A stretch of 64,000 bases of DNA from Candidatus Omnitrophota bacterium. GTDB lineage: Bacteria > Omnitrophota > Gorgyraeia > Gygaellales > Profunditerraquicolaceae. Both the position numbers and the translations under genes were made by a program. The DNA is taken from positions 24,380-88,379 of the forward strand of contig JBAZEH010000002.1 in the NCBI GenBank assembly GCA_041653955.1, read 5' to 3'. The notes under the pieces are model-generated. The model saw only the letters and a list, made by a program, of their open reading frames with translations. It made no database searches and was not told the origin of the DNA. Shown piece after piece: positions 1,618 to 44,497 of the stretch; position 1 is the stretch's first letter, and each line of letters opens with the position of its first letter.

Positions 1618-1703
1618 AACGCCCAAATCTATCGGATGATTTGGCGTAAACTGTTGTTTTAACGCCCAAATCTATCGGATGATTTGGCGTAAACTGCTGT
1701 TTA
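1618..1703. repeat. tandem 2 x 43-bp palindromic element (copies 41/43 identical), hairpin CCAAATC..GATTTGG
   Basis: Copy 1 (1618-1660) is aacgcccaaatctatcggatgatttggcgtaaactgttgtttt. Copy 2 (1661-1703) is aacgcccaaatctatcggatgatttggcgtaaactgctgttta. A related third copy lies at 38924-38953. Confidence 0.85.
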
Positions 1704-1712
1704 GGAGGTAAA

Positions 1713-1871
1713 ATGGAATATCAGAGTGGTGGATTTGGCGGGCCCAGGGAGATGCATAAGGCAGTATGTTCGGAATGCAAGAAAGAGTGTGAAGTCCCAT
1801 TCAAACCCAGGAATGACCGCCCGATATACTGCAGGGATTGTTATTCAAAGCGCAAGAACGAAGGGCGTTAA
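1713..1871 (+). CDS. small zinc-ribbon protein (52 aa, two CxxC pairs)
   Basis: RBS AGGAGG at 1703-1708, ATG at 1713. Translation MEYQSGGFGGPREMHKAVCSECKKECEVPFKPRNDRPIYCRDCYSKRKNEGR with CxxC..CxxC. Below the ORF-track length cutoff. Confidence 0.6.
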   Translation: MEYQSGGFGGPREMHKAVCSECKKECEVPFKPRNDRPIYCRDCYSKRKNEGR

Positions 1872-2737: not shown

Positions 2738-3337
2738 ATGAATATTTTTGTGGGTAACTTATCATTCAAGGCCGGTGAAGAGGACCTGAAGAACCTTTTT
2801 AAAAGTTTTGGCGCTGTTGATTCTGTCAGGATCGTGATGGAAAAAAAAGGTAAAAAATCCAGGGGGTTCGGGTTTGTCCAGATGCCTGATGAACAACAGG
2901 CCCTTGCTGCGATAAGCGCCCTGAACGGTAATGAGTTCATGGAGCGCCCCCTTAATGTCAGCCCGGCGCGCTCCAAGCCTGAAGTAGAGCGGGATAAAGG
3001 CGAAGCAAAAGAGCGCCATCTTAAAGCCGATACTAAAGGCCGTAAAGACCCCTGGTATAAGCCGGCTTTTGAGAAGAAAGCAGGAAGATATAAAACAGGG
3101 AGGCGTTCGCGGAGTTTTATGAAGCGGCGCGCCACAACGGGGATAGCCCAGGAGGCTTTGCCTGAGCCTAAGAGCGGGGAGAACCCTATGCGTTGGCGCA
3201 AAAAGCAGGATCAGCCTAAGCCATGGAAGAAGCGGGCAGGCGGTAAGCCCAATCCATTGCGCAGGAACAGGAGGCATTCGCGCCCGCGCCAATCCCTGGT
3301 CGAAAGCCGCAGGAAACCGGGCGGCTATAACAGATGA
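2738..3337 (+). CDS. RRM-domain RNA-binding protein with Arg/Lys-rich C-terminal tail
   Basis: RNP motifs IFVGNLSF (RNP2) and KSRGFGFVQM (RNP1). The basic tail is RRNRRHSRPRQ. Confidence 0.85.
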   Translation: MNIFVGNLSFKAGEEDLKNLFKSFGAVDSVRIVMEKKGKKSRGFGFVQMPDEQQALAAISALNGNEFMERPLNVSPARSKPEVERDKGEAKERHLKADTKGRKDPWYKPAFEKKAGRYKTGRRSRSFMKRRATTGIAQEALPEPKSGENPMRWRKKQDQPKPWKKRAGGKPNPLRRNRRHSRPRQSLVESRRKPGGYNR

Positions 3338-3582
3338 AGTTAAAATTGAACCTTTATCCGGTAGTCCCGGATATGGAAGAAAGGCTTATAGAGATCTTTC
3401 AGGAAGCGGTGGATAACCGCGCAAAGATGCTTGAGATCACTTATGGCGAAGCCGGAGATATTGTCAAGAAGCGCATACTGAATTTTCTGAATAAAAAAGA
3501 GGTCCGCCAGCTTTATTCCCGCTACGAGAAGACGGAAAAGGGGTGGGGGAGGATTTACGTGCATTTTCGCTGGAAAGATTGA
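3334..3582 (+). CDS. hypothetical protein (82 aa)
   Basis: ORF overlaps the RRM gene stop by 4 nt (coupled). No recognisable motif. Confidence 0.45.
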   Translation: MKLKLNLYPVVPDMEERLIEIFQEAVDNRAKMLEITYGEAGDIVKKRILNFLNKKEVRQLYSRYEKTEKGWGRIYVHFRWKD

Positions 3583-3883: not shown

Positions 3884-5149
3884 ATGAGACATGAAACAGT
3901 GAATGTGAATAAAGTTAATGCGCCGCAGGCGCCTAATCAGGCCGGCCGGAGCTTTTACGGGCTTGGTATTGTTCCAAAGATACTGGATATCCTTGAGCGC
4001 ATCAAGTTCAAGGCGCCGACTCCGATCCAGTTCAAGGCTATCCCTCTTGCCATAGAAGGCAAGGATGTTATCGGCATAGCGCAGACCGGGACCGGAAAAA
4101 CACACTCTTTTGCCATACCTATGGTGCAGCGCCTCGTTAATATGAAGGGGGTAGGGCTGGTCCTTGCTCCTACGCGCGAGCTGGCCATACAGATAGAAGA
4201 GGCCTTTCAGGGGATAGCCCGTCCGTTCGGGATGAAGAGCGCCTGTCTTATAGGCGGGGCTCCTATGGAGGCGCAGGTGCAGGCGCTGCGCAAGAATCCG
4301 CGGATAGTTATAGCGACCCCCGGGAGGCTTATTGACCATATGAGCCAGTGGAATTTCATTCCCTCTGAAGTATGTATGCTGGTCCTTGATGAGGCAGACC
4401 GGATGCTTGATATGGGGTTTGCCCCGCAGATAACTAAAATACTAAAATTCCTGCCGAAAGAAAGGCAGACAATGCTGTTTTCCGCGACTATACCAAAAGA
4501 GATCATGCATATAGCCGCTACTTACATGAAGCTTCCGGTATCGGTTGAGATCGCTCCTTCCGGGACAACGGCTGAACGCGTGACCCAGGAATTATTTATC
4601 GTTAATAAAGAAGCCAAGCGCAGGCTCCTTGGAAAACTGCTGGCTCAATACCACGGGCCGGTACTTCTTTTTTCGCGGACAAAACATAACGCGCGTAAGA
4701 TCACTATGTCTATACGTGATATGGGGTATAGCTCCGCGGAGATACATTCTAACCGTTCTCTTAGCCAGCGCCGCGAAGCCCTGGATGGCTTTAAATCAGG
4801 CAGGTATAAGGTTCTCGTTGCAACCGATATAGCCGCAAGAGGCATAGATGTAGCAGGGATAGAGCTGGTTATTAATTATGATATACCCGAAGATGCCGAG
4901 AATTACGTGCATCGTATCGGCCGCACCGCGAGGGCAGGGCATAAGGGGCATGCGATATCTTTTGCCACCCCTGACCAGAGCCGCGATGTGAAGGATATTG
5001 AAAAGCTTATCCGTTCCACTCTCCCCGTGTCAAAACATCCCGAAGTCCCATCCGAAGAGTTCTCCGAATCAATGCAGGCGGCCCCCCGCTATAAAGGTAG
5101 AAGGCCGCAGCAAAACCAGAAACGATATAAGTTCCGCCCTCGCCGCTAA
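3884..5149 (+). CDS. DEAD-box ATP-dependent RNA helicase
   Basis: Q-motif region, AQTGTGKT (motif I), VLDEADRMLDMGF (DEAD), SAT, HRIGRTARAG (motif VI), basic C-terminal tail. Confidence 0.9.
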   Translation: MRHETVNVNKVNAPQAPNQAGRSFYGLGIVPKILDILERIKFKAPTPIQFKAIPLAIEGKDVIGIAQTGTGKTHSFAIPMVQRLVNMKGVGLVLAPTRELAIQIEEAFQGIARPFGMKSACLIGGAPMEAQVQALRKNPRIVIATPGRLIDHMSQWNFIPSEVCMLVLDEADRMLDMGFAPQITKILKFLPKERQTMLFSATIPKEIMHIAATYMKLPVSVEIAPSGTTAERVTQELFIVNKEAKRRLLGKLLAQYHGPVLLFSRTKHNARKITMSIRDMGYSSAEIHSNRSLSQRREALDGFKSGRYKVLVATDIAARGIDVAGIELVINYDIPEDAENYVHRIGRTARAGHKGHAISFATPDQSRDVKDIEKLIRSTLPVSKHPEVPSEEFSESMQAAPRYKGRRPQQNQKRYKFRPRR

Positions 5150-23242: not shown

Positions 23243-23378
23243 TTGACGGACCGTTGTTTTGGGTGTATAAAAATACCAGGGAATAGATTTGGGTTTGGGA
23301 GCTAAAGAAGCTTCCAAAGGCTATTGGATGGTCGGGCCGCCATCTGTGATAATACAGGATGGCGGTCTTTTATTTTTT
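23243..23378 (+). ncRNA. candidate small RNA / leader: promoter TTGACG-17-TATAAA followed ~65 nt later by a strong intrinsic terminator
   Basis: TTGACG at 23243-23248 and TATAAA at 23266-23271. Terminator stem ccgccatc..gatggcgg at 23337-23365 plus tcttttatttttt. Confidence 0.3.
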
Positions 23379-37012: not shown

Positions 37013-37213
37013 ATGGCAAGAGGAAAAGTAAAGTGGTTCTCAAACCAGAAAGGCTACGGCTTTATCACTCCCGAGTCGGGCAATGATGTATTTGTGCATC
37101 ATAGCGCGATACAAGGCGAGGGTTACAAGTCCTTAGACGAAGGGCAGGAAGTCGAATTCGAGGTGGAGCAGGGCCCTAAAGGTGAACAAGCTACTAAAGT
37201 AGTGAAGTTATAA
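37013..37213 (+). CDS. cspA: cold-shock protein (CspA family)
   Basis: RNP1 KGYGFI, RNP2 VFVHH. 66 aa. Confidence 0.9.
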
Positions 37214-37228
37214 CCTTGAAAAAAAGAA

Positions 37229-37266
37229 CAAACCCGGTCCCATTCAGGGGCCGGGTTTGTTTTTAA
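37229..37266 (+). terminator. rho-independent terminator
   Basis: aaacccggtccc..ggggccgggttt followed by gttttt. Confidence 0.7.
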
Positions 37267-37281
37267 CAGAAGGAGGAGCAG

Positions 37282-37488
37282 ATGCACACAGGCAAGATAA
37301 AGAAGTTAGTGCGTGACAGGGGGTTCGGGTTTATCAGCGATACGGACGGAAGGGAAGTATTCTTTCATCAGTCAAGCCTTCTGGATACAAAATTTGATAT
37401 TCTTAACGAAGAGCAGGCGGTAGAGTTTGAGATAGAGGATTCACCTAAGGGCCCGCGCGCCATCAATGTGCGTATCGCTCAAAAATAA
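37282..37488 (+). CDS. cold-shock domain protein (second Csp paralog)
   Basis: RGFGFI and VFFH motifs. 68 aa. Confidence 0.85.
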   Translation: MHTGKIKKLVRDRGFGFISDTDGREVFFHQSSLLDTKFDILNEEQAVEFEIEDSPKGPRAINVRIAQK

Positions 37489-37511: not shown

Positions 37512-38798
37512 ATGAAAGTAATACTTATAGAACCGGCCGCAGCAGAGGCTAACGTATACAGTAAGTTATGCATGCCTCTTATGGGGCCGGTCTATCTGGG
37601 GACCATACTTAAGAACAGGGGGCATGAGGTCAGTATATATAATGAAGATATGTATACGCCCGATTATTCCAGGCTGGACGCGGATATAATAGGTATCTCT
37701 ATACTTACTTCTACCGCCAGGCGCGGATATGAGATAGCCGGGATGTTCCCGAAAGAGAAGGTGATCATAGGCGGGGTTCATGCCAGCCTTTTGCCCGATG
37801 AGGCGCTTCAATTTGCCAGGCAGGTAGTGGTAGGAGAAGCGGAAGAGGTTATCGCAGATGTAGTAGAAGGCAGGAATAGGGAGCCGATCGTGCAGGGTAC
37901 CCGGCCGCAGGACCTGGATAGCCTGCCTTATCCGGATTTCTCCCTGATAAAAGGTTATAAGGCATCCCCCATAGTCATGCCTATATCTACTTCAAGGGGC
38001 TGCCCTTTTGATTGTATTTTCTGTTCCGTGACAAAGATGTTTGGCCGTGAATACAGGTTCCGCAGCGCGGGAAATGTCATGGGAGAGATAGAATCAAGGA
38101 ACGCGAGGTCTTTTTTCTTTTGCGACGATAATTTTACCGCGCACCCGGAACGCACGCGTGCGCTGCTTGGACTCATGCTGGAACGCAAGGTCCCAAGCTG
38201 GAGCTGTCAGGTGCGCTGCGATGCGGCAAAGGATGATGAACTCCTGGACCTTATGGCGCGCGCCGGATGTTCCGTAGTATGCGTGGGTTTTGAATCCATT
38301 AACCAGAAGACCCTGCAGGCGTATAAGAAGAAACAGAGTGTGGATGATATAATAAAATCTATCCGTTCCTTCCGCAGGAAGAAACTCAGGATACACGGGA
38401 TGTTCGTCCTGGGAGGGGATGATGACAATGAAAAGACCGTATGGGATACCCTTAAGTTCGCAGTAAAAGAGAAGATAGATACCATTCAGATGATGATCCT
38501 TACGCCCGTGCCGGGGACGAAGCTGCATGAAGAGTTGACGAAAGATGACCGCATCCTTAGCCACGATTGGAGCCTGTATGACGGCCAACATGTCGTTTTT
38601 AAACCGAAGTTGATATCGGCTAAGCAGCTGCAGATGAACGTGGTCAGGGCGTATATCAGGTTTTACTCTCTTTCCAAGTCATTATCCCTGCTCATAAGGA
38701 TGCGTTTTCGTAACGCGATGTTCCGTTTCATAGGATACAGGATCATCCACGAATGGGTCCGGCATAACCATAAGATGCACTGGCTGCTTCAGATTTGA
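37512..38798 (+). CDS. B12-binding domain radical SAM protein
   Basis: N-terminal cobalamin-binding-like domain. TSRGCPFDCIFCS (CxxxCxxC). Confidence 0.85.
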   Translation: MKVILIEPAAAEANVYSKLCMPLMGPVYLGTILKNRGHEVSIYNEDMYTPDYSRLDADIIGISILTSTARRGYEIAGMFPKEKVIIGGVHASLLPDEALQFARQVVVGEAEEVIADVVEGRNREPIVQGTRPQDLDSLPYPDFSLIKGYKASPIVMPISTSRGCPFDCIFCSVTKMFGREYRFRSAGNVMGEIESRNARSFFFCDDNFTAHPERTRALLGLMLERKVPSWSCQVRCDAAKDDELLDLMARAGCSVVCVGFESINQKTLQAYKKKQSVDDIIKSIRSFRRKKLRIHGMFVLGGDDDNEKTVWDTLKFAVKEKIDTIQMMILTPVPGTKLHEELTKDDRILSHDWSLYDGQHVVFKPKLISAKQLQMNVVRAYIRFYSLSKSLSLLIRMRFRNAMFRFIGYRIIHEWVRHNHKMHWLLQI

Positions 38799-38800
38799 CC

Positions 38801-38829
38801 TTGACCATTAAGCCATCCGGCAGTAAAAT
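38801..38829 (+). promoter_or_regulatory. promoter TTGACC-17-TAAAAT (GCAG upstream of -10)
   Basis: TTGACC at 38801-38806 (a second TTGACC at 38795), ccggcagTAAAAT ends at 38829. Confidence 0.6.
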
Positions 38830-38855
38830 ACTTTATAACTGCGGGAGGATGGCTG

Positions 38856-38948
38856 ATGTTAAAAAAAGAAATAATTATCTTGGCAACTCTTCAATATAGG
38901 GAGGGTTGCCTTTTTATTGGAATAACGCCCAAACCTATCTGATAGTTT
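38856..38948 (+). CDS. possible 30-aa upstream ORF terminating inside the palindromic element
   Basis: GGAGGA then 7 nt then ATG at 38856. Translation MLKKEIIILATLQYREGCLFIGITPKPI. Stop TGA lies in the loop ctatcTGAtag. Confidence 0.2.
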
Positions 38949-38953
38949 GGTGT
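38924..38953 (+). promoter_or_regulatory. third copy of the palindromic element (aacgcccaaacctatctgatagtttggtgt), 23 nt upstream of an ATG
   Basis: Aligns with 1618-1647. The stem change T>C is compensated by A>G (CCAAAC/GTTTGG). Followed by CTGTTG and AGGAGG as in copy 2. Confidence 0.7.
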
Positions 38954-38976
38954 GCCTGTTGGGCAAGGAGGATGGT

Positions 38977-39315
38977 ATGCGACTTGAAGAATTAAAAGGG
39001 AAACTCGTGCTTTTTAAGTTTGCCGATGAGATAAGAGGGGATCTTTCTCTTTTTCAGATCTACAAGGATGAGATGTGGGCAGTGGTCACGGGTATTGACG
39101 ACGTGGGCATCTGGATAGAGAACCCATCCTATGAACTCGGGGTATGGTGGAATGATAAGGGCGAGCTGGTCCCCCCGGCTAAACAGGTAAAAGAGAAAGT
39201 AAAGACAGATATACTTATCGCCTGGCGTTATATCAAAGGGCTGATGAACGTTGAAGATGACCGTTTCCAGAGGGTAAAGAGCGAGAGCCTGCCGGGATTC
39301 CAGGCCTATAAATAG
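38977..39315 (+). CDS. hypothetical protein (112 aa)
   Basis: AAGGAGG then 6 nt then ATG at 38977 (MRLEELKGKL...). The track start at 38947 is a TTG inside the element. Confidence 0.5.
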   Translation: MRLEELKGKLVLFKFADEIRGDLSLFQIYKDEMWAVVTGIDDVGIWIENPSYELGVWWNDKGELVPPAKQVKEKVKTDILIAWRYIKGLMNVEDDRFQRVKSESLPGFQAYK

Positions 39316-41600: not shown

Positions 41601-43766
41601 ATGTCGGCAGTCAATTTTTTATGGTTAGCCCCTGTAGGTTCAATAATAGCACTTTTGTTCGCCTGGTACCTCGCGGCTTCTATCATGAAGAAAGGCGAAG
41701 GCAATGATAAGATGCGCGAGATAGCACAGGCAGTGCGGGTGGGCTCAAGGGCGTATTTAAAGAGGCAGTATTTAGGCGTATCTATATTTTTTCTGGTAGT
41801 ATTCTGCGTCCTTATGGTCCTGGCCATAAATAAATACCTGGTTATATTTGTTCCGTTCGCATTCCTCACCGGCGGCCTCTTCTCCGGCCTGGCTGGTTTT
41901 ATCGGTATGTCTATAGCTACCCAGGCGTCATCCCGTACCACTAATGAAGCAATGAAGGGTTTAAATTGCGGGCTGCGGGTGGCGTTTAATAGCGGCGCGG
42001 TCATGGGTATGGTGGTCGTGGGGTTAGGGCTCCTGGACCTGTCTATATGGTATTTTTTCTTAAATGCTTATTACGGAAGCTATAGTATCCCCGCGTGGAT
42101 ACCGCAATGGTTGTCTCCGTACCTTACATGGGCCTTTCAGGCGCACCCGTTACCTATCGGGACAGATAAGATCACCGCTATTACTTCCACGATGCTTTGT
42201 TTTGGTATGGGCGCCAGTTCGCAGGCGTTATTTGCCCGCGTGGGCGGAGGCATATTCACCAAGGCTGCGGATGTCGGCGCGGATTTAGTCGGTAAAGTTG
42301 AAGCGGGCATTCCCGAGGATGACCCGCGTAACCCCGCGGTTATCGCGGATAATGTGGGCGATAATGTAGGAGACGTGGCGGGTATGGGCGCGGACCTTTA
42401 TGAGTCTTACGTGGGTTCTATCGTGGCTACCGCGGCTTTAGGCGTGGCTGCGGGTTTGGGGGTTTCCGGGGTTACTGTTCCTATGGTAATGGCCGCGGTA
42501 GGGGTGGTGGCTTCCATTGTCGGGACATTCTTTGTCAGGTGCAGGGAAGAGTCTACTCAAAAGATATTATTGGTGGCGTTAAGAAAGGGGATATTTGTCA
42601 GCGCCGGATTAGTGGCCCTGATATCTTATTTCCTGGTTAAATATACTCTCGGTATTGAGCATATGGGAGTTTACTGGTCGGTATTATCGGGTTTGATCGC
42701 CGGAGTATTAATAGGATTATCTACCGAATATTTTACCTCAAGCCATTTTAAACCCACGCGGTCAATAGCCGAGGCGTCTTTAACCGGGCCCGCGACCGTT
42801 ATTATCGGGGGTATATCGGTAGGGATGATGTCAACGGCGATACCGGTGATCGTAATAGGCGTCGCGATATTATTGAGCTATTTTCTTTCGGGCGGCGCCG
42901 CTAATCCTAACGCCGGACTTTACGGAGTGGGGATTTCCGCGGTAGGCATGCTTTCTACCCTTGGAATAACACTGGCTACCGATGCCTATGGCCCGGTTGC
43001 TGATAATGCCGGAGGTAACGCGCAGATGGCGGGCCTTGATCCTGAGGTAAGGAAAAGGACGGATGCCCTGGATTCATTGGGCAATACTACCGCCGCTACG
43101 GGCAAAGGTTTTGCTATAGGTTCCGCGGCCTTGACCGCGCTTGCTTTAATAGCCGCTTATCGCGACCAGGTATCTTTATACGGGAAAGAGCTTAGCTTAA
43201 ACCTCATGCAGCCGAGTGTGCTGGTGGGCTTATTTATTGGGGCTATGCTGCCTTTCGCGTTCTGTTCTATGACGATGAGCGCGGTAGGGAGGGCGGCAGG
43301 AAAGATCGTAGTAGAAGTGCGTAGGCAGTTCAAGGAGATACTCGGGTTGATGGAAGGCAAGGCTAAGCCGGATTATGCGCGTTGCGTGACCATAGCCACT
43401 TCAGCGGCGCAGAAAGAGATGATCATCCCATCGCTCATGGCGATAATAGCTCCTATTGCCGTAGGGCTATTAGTCGGTGTAGAAGCTGTGGCAGGGCTTT
43501 TGACCGGAGCGACCGTAACAGGGTTTGCGTTGGCGGTAATGATGGCGAATTCCGGCGGCGCCTGGGATAATGCCAAGAAATATATAGAGGAAGGCCATTA
43601 CGGAGGGAAAGGTTCTCCCGCGCATAAGGCAGGGGTTGTCGGCGATACGGTAGGGGATCCTTTTAAAGATACCTCCGGCCCAAGCCTGAATATACTCATC
43701 AAGCTTATGTCCATGGTTTCGATAGTTTTCGCATCCTTCGTCATCTCCAACTCTTTCTTCAAATAG
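41601..43766 (+). CDS. hppA: membrane-bound proton-translocating pyrophosphatase
   Basis: [28 protein letters not shown], about 16 TM helices. Confidence 0.9.
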
Positions 43767-43823
43767 GGACACCTTTTCTGCCAATCGAGGGACACCCTTT
43801 TAGCCAAAGCTAAGGGTGTCCCT
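43765..43823. repeat. left inverted repeat with internal REP hairpin; overlaps the hppA stop codon
   Basis: agggacaccttttctgccaatcgagggacacccttttagccaaagctaagggtgtccct. Confidence 0.8.
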
Positions 43824-43830
43824 TTTCTTT

Positions 43831-44313
43831 TCAGGTTGAGTCGACAAGATCCAAAAGCTTGCTTTTGTTTCCTAAAGTCCTATTTCTATAACTGCTCCAG
43901 ATATATTCCATTGGCGACTGAGTTAATCCTTTCCTGACCGGATTCATTTCTACATAGTACACGCACTCTAGAAAATAATCATCTTTTTGTATAATCATAC
44001 TCTTGAATCTGCCTTGCCAAAGATGACCTACTTTTCTGTATTTCTTATTAAACCATGTAGTGTATGTTTGGGTTATACCTTGCATGAGGATAGGAAGATT
44101 CTCGGGTTGTTTGGGTTGTAATATTAAATGAATGTGATTGGGCATAAGGCAATAGCAGAATAATTTGAAAAGATATTTTTTCTTATAATGTTTTAACAAT
44201 TGTAAATACTTAGCAAAATCAGAATCCTCCAGAAATATTCTTTCTCTTTGATTCCCCCTGTTAACAACGTGATAGCATACATTATTTAACAGAATTCTTG
44301 CTCCTCGTGGCAT
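43831..44313 (-). CDS. RAYT / IS200-like Y1 (HUH) transposase
   Basis: HUH motif [15 protein letters not shown] and [12 protein letters not shown] (Tyr region) typical of TnpA_REP. RBS aaaaggaggt upstream. Confidence 0.75.
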
Positions 44314-44394: not shown

Positions 44395-44453
44395 AGGGAC
44401 ACCCTTAGCTTTGGCTAAAAGGGTGTCCCTCGATTGGCAGAAAGGGTGTCCCT
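44395..44453. repeat. right inverted repeat with internal REP hairpin
   Basis: agggacacccttagctttggctaaaagggtgtccctcgattggcagaaagggtgtccct. Confidence 0.8.
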
Positions 44454-44497
44454 AAAATAGTTATTTTTGTTGGGTTTTGTGGTATAATAAGCCCGTT

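Follow-up and report, generated by a model that had tools for sequence, protein, structure and literature searches.

The described systems closest to the element reported here are the repetitive extragenic palindromic (REP) and REPIN elements, which are mobilised by RAYT (Y1) transposases (PMC3116915, PMC3337134, PMC5581495), and the Rickettsia palindromic elements (RPEs), selfish palindromic repeats that lie between genes and, in frame, within them (reviewed in PMC10969869). We analysed a 64,000-nucleotide stretch of DNA from a Candidatus Omnitrophota bacterium (GenBank assembly GCA_041653955.1, contig JBAZEH010000002.1, positions 24,380 to 88,379; hereafter the window, numbered from its first letter), which carries three copies of a palindromic unit directly upstream of Shine-Dalgarno (SD) sequences. 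A preliminary description of the window had read the palindrome as a cis-acting element tied to genes for B12-binding radical SAM proteins. [quoted passage not shown] We class it as a family of Omnitrophota repeats that has not been described before. Its placement next to the SD and its self-nesting are unusual, and the literature that we searched holds no description of such an element in this phylum.

A pattern scan of the window placed the motif ACGCCCAAAYCTATCNGATRRTTTGG at 1619-1644, 1662-1687 and 38925-38950, on the + strand in all cases, and 100 dinucleotide shuffles produced no chance match. The full copies span 1619-1659, 1662-1702 and 38925-38964 (+), and neither relaxed regular-expression scans nor an unfiltered covariance-model scan found a further clear copy in the 64 kb. 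One unit measures ~44 nt (42-45 nt) and is built of two hairpins, P1 followed by P2. P1 is 29 nt long, with 10 pairs, one bulged C, an inner stem of 5-6 bp that is free in sequence, and the loop UAUCGGAU; across copies its foot reads (A/G)CAC-C ... G-GUG(U/C), i.e., a conserved CACC/GGUG. P2 has a stem of 4-6 bp, also free in sequence, and a pyrimidine-rich loop (UUUCU, UUACU, UUGU or CUCCU). The first unit consists of P1 at 1619-1647 (+), ACGCC(C)AAAUC / loop UAUCGGAU / GAUUUGGCGU with the bulged C in brackets, and P2 at 1648-1659 (+), AAAC-UGUU-GUUU, and is joined to the second by the 2-nt linker UA (1660-1661). In the second unit, P1 (1662-1690, +) has the same sequence, and P2 (1691-1702, +; AAAC-UGCU-GUUU) touches the SD of a zinc (Zn)-ribbon gene, whose SD and start codon (1703-1715, +; AGGAGG 1703-1708, ATG 1713-1715) are host flank of the units. 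The third unit, with P1 at 38925-38953 (+; ACGCC(C)AAACC / loop UAUCUGAU / AGUUUGGUGU, one G.U pair and one C.A mismatch) and P2 at 38954-38964 (+; GCC-UGUUG-GGC), is likewise flanked by the SD and start codon of a host gene encoding 112 aa (38965-38979, +; AAGGAGG 38965-38971, ATG 38977-38979). A covariance model built from 15 copies and rebuilt from 58 scores the three units at 43.9 bits (R2, E=5e-10 over 1619-1659), 49.5 bits (E=1.4e-11 over 1662-1703) and 36.7 bits (E=4.7e-8 over 38925-38964). In folding calculations, single units are more stable than shuffled sequence (z -2.9 to -3.5), and the predicted fold of the units leaves the SD unsequestered.

Much of the preliminary description of these sites holds. 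Its tandem 43-nt duplicate at 1618-1703, 41/43 identical, is present (1618-1660 and 1661-1703 differ at 2/43 positions), and so is its third, diverged copy, now extended to the full unit given above. The hairpin core stands, but not its stated extent: P1 pairing reaches further out (ACGCC...GGCGU / GGUGU) and includes a bulged C. The “CTGTTG box” said to follow the hairpin is there as sequence, but it is the loop of the second small hairpin, P2, and the claimed gap of 10-25 nt before AGGAGG is in fact 0-1 nt. The compensatory change of T>C in one arm and A>G in the other, between copies 1-2 and copy 3, is real, although copy 3 also has a C.A mismatch at the loop-closing pair, with the loop UAUCUGAU.

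The suggestion of a conserved base-paired structure beside the ribosome-binding site is borne out by abundant covariation across the family. The covariance model supports the covarying pairs, 14/15 of which show changes on both sides. Among 82 distinct copies, standard pairs make up 95.8% of cells, where shuffles give 71% and slid controls 35-46%; there are 288 compensatory cells, and 0/500 shuffles reach either 95.8% pairing or 288 cells. The alignment was fitted to the model and so favours pairing, but the variety of stems can nonetheless be read from the raw sequences themselves, where the inner P1 stem has the forms CCCAAAC/GUUUGG, CCCUGGC/GCCAGG, CCUUGCC/GGCAAG and CCCGGCC/GGCCGG, and stem positions 7-9 each show 4-6 pair types with complementarity kept. 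While the stems covary, the loop U-A-x-x-G-G-A-U is nearly invariant. Loop positions A14, G18 and A19 and the pair C5-G33 are essentially fixed, and G17, G18 and A19 are conserved in 74, 81 and 81 of the 82 copies, one genome having UGA instead of GGA throughout (L002, L010, L028; L-numbers are labels of loci compared with the window). G.U pairs are no commoner than A.C mismatches (12 vs 11), and therefore the folded strand may equally be RNA or DNA; an excess of G.U was also considered as a sign of sense-strand RNA, and these counts are uninformative on that point.

The unit is widespread in Omnitrophota. In a scan of one genome per species, 23 assemblies contained the strict 23-nt pattern CCCAAAYCTATCNGATNNTTTGG, at 39 loci in all and at as many as 8 in a single assembly. 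The label is Omnitrophota or Omnitrophica for twenty of them; two carry the third-party label “Planctomycetales” and have copies with the full unit, and one is labelled “Gammaproteobacteria”; the match in the last (L036) is without foot and P2, and we take it as a chance match by our own estimate for a 19-base pattern in 596 Gb. With the covariance model, the window and ~45 loci yield 86 copies, of which 82 are distinct. P2 is near-uniform among the dispersed copies of one genome and different between genomes. No Rfam 15 family matched at gathering score, nothing relevant appeared at E<=10 over 1382-2020 and 38790-39000, and a scan of viral contigs with the motif gave 0 matches. The preliminary description had named two outcomes that would speak against its own reading, many unrelated copies as for a generic REP and a lack of radical SAM association in other genomes, and both were seen: the scans returned 86 copies with unrelated genes downstream, and the tie to radical SAM genes did not recur elsewhere. 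The genes directly 3' of sense copies encode Amt, P-II, YebC, ComEC, MTA phosphorylase (MTAP), S15, ACP, two SDRs, SRPBCC, CBM11, membrane proteins and the Zn ribbon. A riboswitch or thermometer was considered and rejected, given the unrelated downstream genes and an SD that is not sequestered.

Placement follows a pattern of its own. In an SD-based classification of the 86 copies, on which the orientation statistics rest, 23 copies lie in sense and abut an SD and start codon, 20 are followed by another unit, 3 are antisense next to an SD (L129, L031, L017), at least 7 sit in GGGACNGTCCC hairpins, and the remainder occupy other intergenic or open reading frame (ORF) positions. The start codon lies 24-31 nt after P1 in the sense copies that abut an SD. 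On the right flank, 83/85 copies have a purine at +1 and 78/85 have one at +2, and the bases after P2 often begin GGAG or GGAU; copies thus tend to end directly 5' of an SD. Junctions of the types ^AAGGAGG, UAUCG^GAUGG, ^GGAUUC and GAAG^GGGAC recur, as do the right flanks AAGGAGG, GAUGG, GGAUUC and GGGGAC. We considered whether a perfect SD is part of the element and assign it to the host instead, because unit-free AGGAGG sites are common (58 AGGAGG + start sites without a unit vs 15 with one). A promoter inside the unit was likewise considered, and a consensus scan found none. In one genome, JAQUQA01, runs of a short AAAGCGCAAAAC-type repeat, which is another local repeat family, lie directly 3' of the unit (L038 5399-5480, L039 2823-2900).

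Signs of mobility come from orthologous sites that are filled in some genomes and empty in others. The leader of the Zn-ribbon gene is empty in L052 and L070 (“...agaaataaaAGGAGGaaacATG”) and in L054 and L060 (“ataaactaaaaaAGGAGGtaacATG”), and in L061, L056, L066 and L075 a single unit, two units or nested units interrupt it right at the SD. At least 13 loci, taken from different samples, have 1-5 units at this gene. For the H+-PPase gene, three tandem units precede the SD in L128, and there is no unit behind the same TTGACw-N17-TAGCAT promoter in the window (41601) and in L126. Leaders of the 112-aa gene are empty in 5/6 orthologous loci, and in L129 one unit stands before this gene in opposite orientation, 5 nt from the SD. 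Units have also entered coding sequence: the C-terminal part of a small lysine-rich (K-rich) ORF upstream of the Zn-ribbon gene holds 1-3 in-frame units, with the frame kept, in L067 (42 nt), L069 (132 nt), L087 and L075, and empty alleles are found in L062 and L057, while L068 has a solo P2 only. No target-site duplication is present at the filled/empty junctions, including the K-rich ORF junction ...aaagc^GGATTC, and there are no terminal inverted repeats, the unit's ends not being inverted repeats of each other. The contigs from the same species (L120-L123) do not differ from the window and hence are uninformative on polymorphism.

Further signs lie in how units are arranged with respect to one another and to other hairpins. 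Direct tandem arrays of 1-4 units, with a period of 43-45 nt, occur in operon intergenic regions and are co-oriented with the genes. In L005, L008, L016, L018, L021, L030, L056, L061 and L066, a complete unit is nested in the loop of another at UAUCG^GAU, and once the nested unit is taken out, the outer one matches the copy next to it at 41/42 positions in L008 and at 39/42 in L030. In several genomes a unit occupies the loop of stereotyped terminator-like hairpins (GGGACNGTCCCC-loop-GGGGACNGTCCC, then a T-run), and the same GGGACNGTCCCC/GGGGACNGTCCC hairpins also occur empty, with loops GAAG or UUCG. Separately, this terminator hairpin (GGGACNGTCCCC-GAAG/UUCG-GGGGACNGTCCC plus T-run) is itself a near-identical dispersed repeat in some Omnitrophota genomes (L002 2641-2667, L009 6119-6145); among what we call class B loci, it is found in L003, L009, L020, L025 and L037, often with the unit in its loop.

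How might such a unit move? A structure-specific enzyme, provided in trans, would act on the folded single strand. The most plausible mobiliser would be an HUH/Y1 single-strand transposase, IS200/IS605- or RAYT-like, because this enzyme class has exactly these requirements: it depends on hairpin ends, its target is short and fixed, and no target duplication results. SDs, the unit's own loop and terminator loops would all offer a similar short target. An inserted unit would then be transcribed in leader or intercistronic RNA as two self-contained hairpins with the SD free, and insertions next to an SD may be tolerated because both hairpins are closed and the SD is left free; an effect on mRNA stability or translation, if any, would be secondary.

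The window contains a Y1_Tnp (IS200-like / RAYT-like) gene of 160 aa at 43834-44313 (-), flanked by inverted hairpins, GGGACACCC-N16-GGGTGTCCC, at 43766-43830 and 44396-44455. The foot of these hairpins, ACACC/GGUGU, resembles the P1 foot of other genomes, with a covariance-model score of E=0.6-3.6 only. A Y1_Tnp homologue in L008 (4533-4072) is flanked by different repeats, GCGCCTGACCCCTTT. We considered a RAYT/REP link of the unit and rejected it, as the Y1_Tnp genes in the window and L008 border other hairpins. An autonomous parent element with the unit's ends was not found.

Several observations weigh against reading the unit as mobile DNA. Movement is inferred from comparative patterns, and no transposase is tied to the unit, the Y1_Tnp genes of the window and L008 having the different flanking hairpins just described. 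The target rule is approximate, with GGA within 6 nt of the right flank in 29/85 copies, and the copy density, ~1 site per 30-50 kb in unselected DNA, is modest. Three further features would also fit an RNA that is recognised by a conserved factor, namely the strong orientation bias of SD-adjacent copies (23 sense vs 3 antisense), a 23-nt core that is identical across many species, and the invariance of the loop. It is a real, if minor, possibility that the unit is a cis-regulatory RNA module whose P1 loop shows an SD-like GGA and is bound by a conserved trans-acting factor (the 30S subunit, a protein like CsrA, or a different RNA-binding protein, for which the Zn-ribbon, RRM and Csp proteins encoded nearby are examples), tuning translation or stability of many highly expressed genes, with dispersal by duplication as a secondary matter. 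The distance kept between P1 and the start codon in sense copies whose P2 abuts the SD agrees with this, as does the recurrence of units before the Zn-ribbon gene in different samples, and the GGA loop followed by the GGA of the SD is like the two-site CsrA layout as we know it. However, copies are also found in an ORF, in terminator loops, in antisense and nested, and a nested insertion destroys the outer loop. Orthologous leaders of close relatives are without the unit, related genomes have it before different genes, and the structure does not sequester the SD. The equal footing of G.U and A.C is a further point against a regulatory RNA, as is the genome that has UGA for GGA throughout. A CsrA site in particular was considered and judged unlikely: the GGA loop fits, but there are copies outside leaders and the UGA genome, and tblastn found no CsrA homologue in the window and 39 loci, a partial sample.

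The mobile-repeat and regulatory-RNA readings are not mutually exclusive. We regard it as unlikely, though worth stating, that the unit is a mobile regulatory cassette, a portable leader of 44 nt whose P1, with its CACC/GGUG foot, bulged C and SD-like GGA in the loop, would be recognised by a factor conserved across Omnitrophota. The ribosome might be that factor, or else an RNA-binding protein, such as the Zn-ribbon, RRM or Csp proteins whose genes lie nearby. If so, each transposition beside an SD would recruit a new gene into a post-transcriptional regulon. A related reading, also unlikely, is that SDs are targeted by single-strand transposition of a new kind, in which case the unit would be among the smallest mobile units known. 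The tandem arrays, with their regular period, operon intergenic position and co-orientation with genes, and the 41/43 identity of the window's two adjacent units might instead recall a mycobacterial interspersed repetitive unit (MIRU)-like intercistronic minisatellite, spread by replication slippage, recombination or gene conversion between leaders and needing no dedicated transposase. We find this improbable: slippage leaves unexplained the single units at many unlinked sites with clean junctions, the precise insertion into loops of units and terminators, and the purine bias of the right flank. The interpretation offered first, that the palindrome is the operator of a dimeric transcription factor or marks a radical SAM + small-protein module (RiPP-like or lipid-modification), we consider highly improbable. 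P1 is an imperfect palindrome, and in the window both sites do lie <1 kb downstream of B12-binding radical SAM genes, which end at 1381 and 38798. The operator of a dimeric regulator is not a likely identity, given arm sequences that change freely while complementarity holds; P2 is without any sequence conservation, and many copies lie in short intercistronic gaps, where a promoter would not be expected. The tie to radical SAM genes does not extend to related genomes. A radical SAM homologue of any kind is present in just 7/39 motif loci, and a Pfam scan of 21 downstream proteins gave 0 radical SAM. In a sample of 80 loci with Zn-ribbon homologues, taken from a protein-based metagenome scan, 0 have both the unit and a radical SAM gene, 11 have the unit upstream alone, 5 have radical SAM alone and 64 have neither. 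The closest relatives, L040 and L041 (Zn-ribbon identity 92% and 91%), have an orthologue of the first radical SAM gene upstream of the Zn ribbon and no unit, and the neighbours of the 112-aa gene vary in other genomes. Judged from gene order, the window's double linkage is conserved synteny of small RNA-metabolism genes with radical SAM genes in the lineage (L011, L125), not a property of the repeat.

Against these alternatives, we favour mobile repeat DNA, and the surroundings of the three copies can be described on that basis. Units 1 and 2 are placed between the conserved K-rich small ORF and the Zn-ribbon gene (1713-1871, +), which encodes a 52-aa CxxC-x17-CxxC zinc ribbon (PF23477/TIGR04272). 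The K-rich ORF itself (51 aa, MARENYSYKKYQKELARKKK..., 1459-1614, +) is a conserved partner directly 5' of the Zn-ribbon gene; tblastn found it in 20/80 Zn-ribbon loci, and further cases are visible by eye. Unit 3 is placed between a terminator-like hairpin and the 112-aa gene (38977-39315, +), whose product is conserved in Omnitrophota and has no Pfam or NCBIfam match. A search returned 416 homologues of this tightly conserved family, of which the 120 listed are nearly all 112 aa long and 72-83% identical; the sources named for the matches listed are all Omnitrophota/Omnitrophica or an unclassified “bacterium.” Upstream of unit 3 there is a promoter-like TTGACC-N17-TAAAAT (38801-38829), then the terminator-like hairpin, of 11 bp with a T-run (38882-38910), which is kept in L129. 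A 28-codon ORF (38857-38943, +), with GGGAGG before it, crosses this hairpin and ends at UGA in the P1 loop; it is probably fortuitous because it is not conserved in L129.

Two further features of the window stand apart from the repeat. The Zn-ribbon gene is one of a set of RNA-metabolism or cold-shock-type genes; the others encode two Csp proteins (37013-37488), a DEAD-box helicase (3884-5149), Smr (3334-3582) and a protein with an RRM (2738-3337), and these genes adjoin each other and B12-binding radical SAM genes in other Omnitrophota contigs (L011, L030, L125). This recurrent neighbourhood suggests that the Zn ribbon is an RNA-associated protein. Elsewhere, a full-length match to nhaA-I RNA (RF03057, a Na+ riboswitch class) lies at 23291-23345 (+), with 53.3 bits vs a gathering score of 37, ~50 nt upstream of the AGGAGG + ATG of a 332-aa ORF.

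The outcome removes a false lead, in that the palindrome marks no radical SAM + small-peptide module, and it documents a repeat family in a phylum without cultured members. Such repeats affect the assembly of metagenome-assembled genomes and gene calling, and the covariance model would allow others to annotate the units. Filled and empty sites are natural markers by which strains could be typed. Should the hairpins influence the stability or translation of mRNAs, they would also be a source of regulatory variation in Omnitrophota.

Compared with known systems, the unit shares single traits with several. Like CsrA/RsmA leaders, it shows one GGA in a hairpin loop and another further 3', in the SD, but the position before GGA is off the A(N)GGA rule, one genome has UGA, and copies occur outside leaders. 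Like RPEs, it is found in intergenic regions and also inserted in frame, the ORF staying open; RPEs, however, are ~100-150 bp long, carry a conserved peptide and are confined to Rickettsia, whereas the unit is 44 nt long, mostly non-coding and in frame in one small ORF family only, where the translated peptide is incidental. It differs from MITEs of DDE transposases in being without terminal inverted repeats and target-site duplication. With mycobacterial MIRUs and pneumococcal boxB, it shares a length of 40-50 nt and variable-number direct tandems in operons that are co-oriented and transcribed with the genes. MIRUs, which are not built as hairpins, run over stop and start codons, and BOX elements need boxA and boxC ends; the unit, in contrast, is a hairpin module that nests in its own loop and abuts the SD, and we know of no MIRU or BOX element that does either.

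The nearest likenesses are to elements of single-strand transposases. Miniature elements derived from IS200/IS605 (PATE-like) have hairpin ends, neither terminal inverted repeats nor target-site duplication, one biased flank, and insertion into single-stranded loops, all as in the unit. The target of the unit is more loosely defined (RR / GGA), its parent element was not found, and described PATEs are larger than 44 nt. REP and REPIN elements are alike in being short (20-40 nt), imperfect palindromes with bulges that are multi-copy and mostly intergenic, homogeneous in sequence within a genome and different between lineages. They, too, have no target duplication and, apart from the hairpin, no terminal inverted repeats, and a Y1_Tnp gene lies in the same window as the three units. 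REP systems run to tens to hundreds of copies per genome; for the unit, the strict pattern gives up to 8 loci per assembly. The unit differs from them in several respects. It forms direct tandem and nested arrays rather than inverted REPIN doublets, with a single inverted neighbour, in L007, and it includes a second hairpin, P2. GTAG is absent 5' of the window copies (GTAA, TTAA, ATAA), and GTAG, TTAG or GAAG precedes the foot only in other genomes, in copies within terminator loops. Other hairpins, not inverted copies of the unit, border the local Y1 gene. Finally, whereas REPs lie mostly 3' of genes, the unit sits 5' of the SD in sense orientation, and its 23-nt core is conserved across many species.

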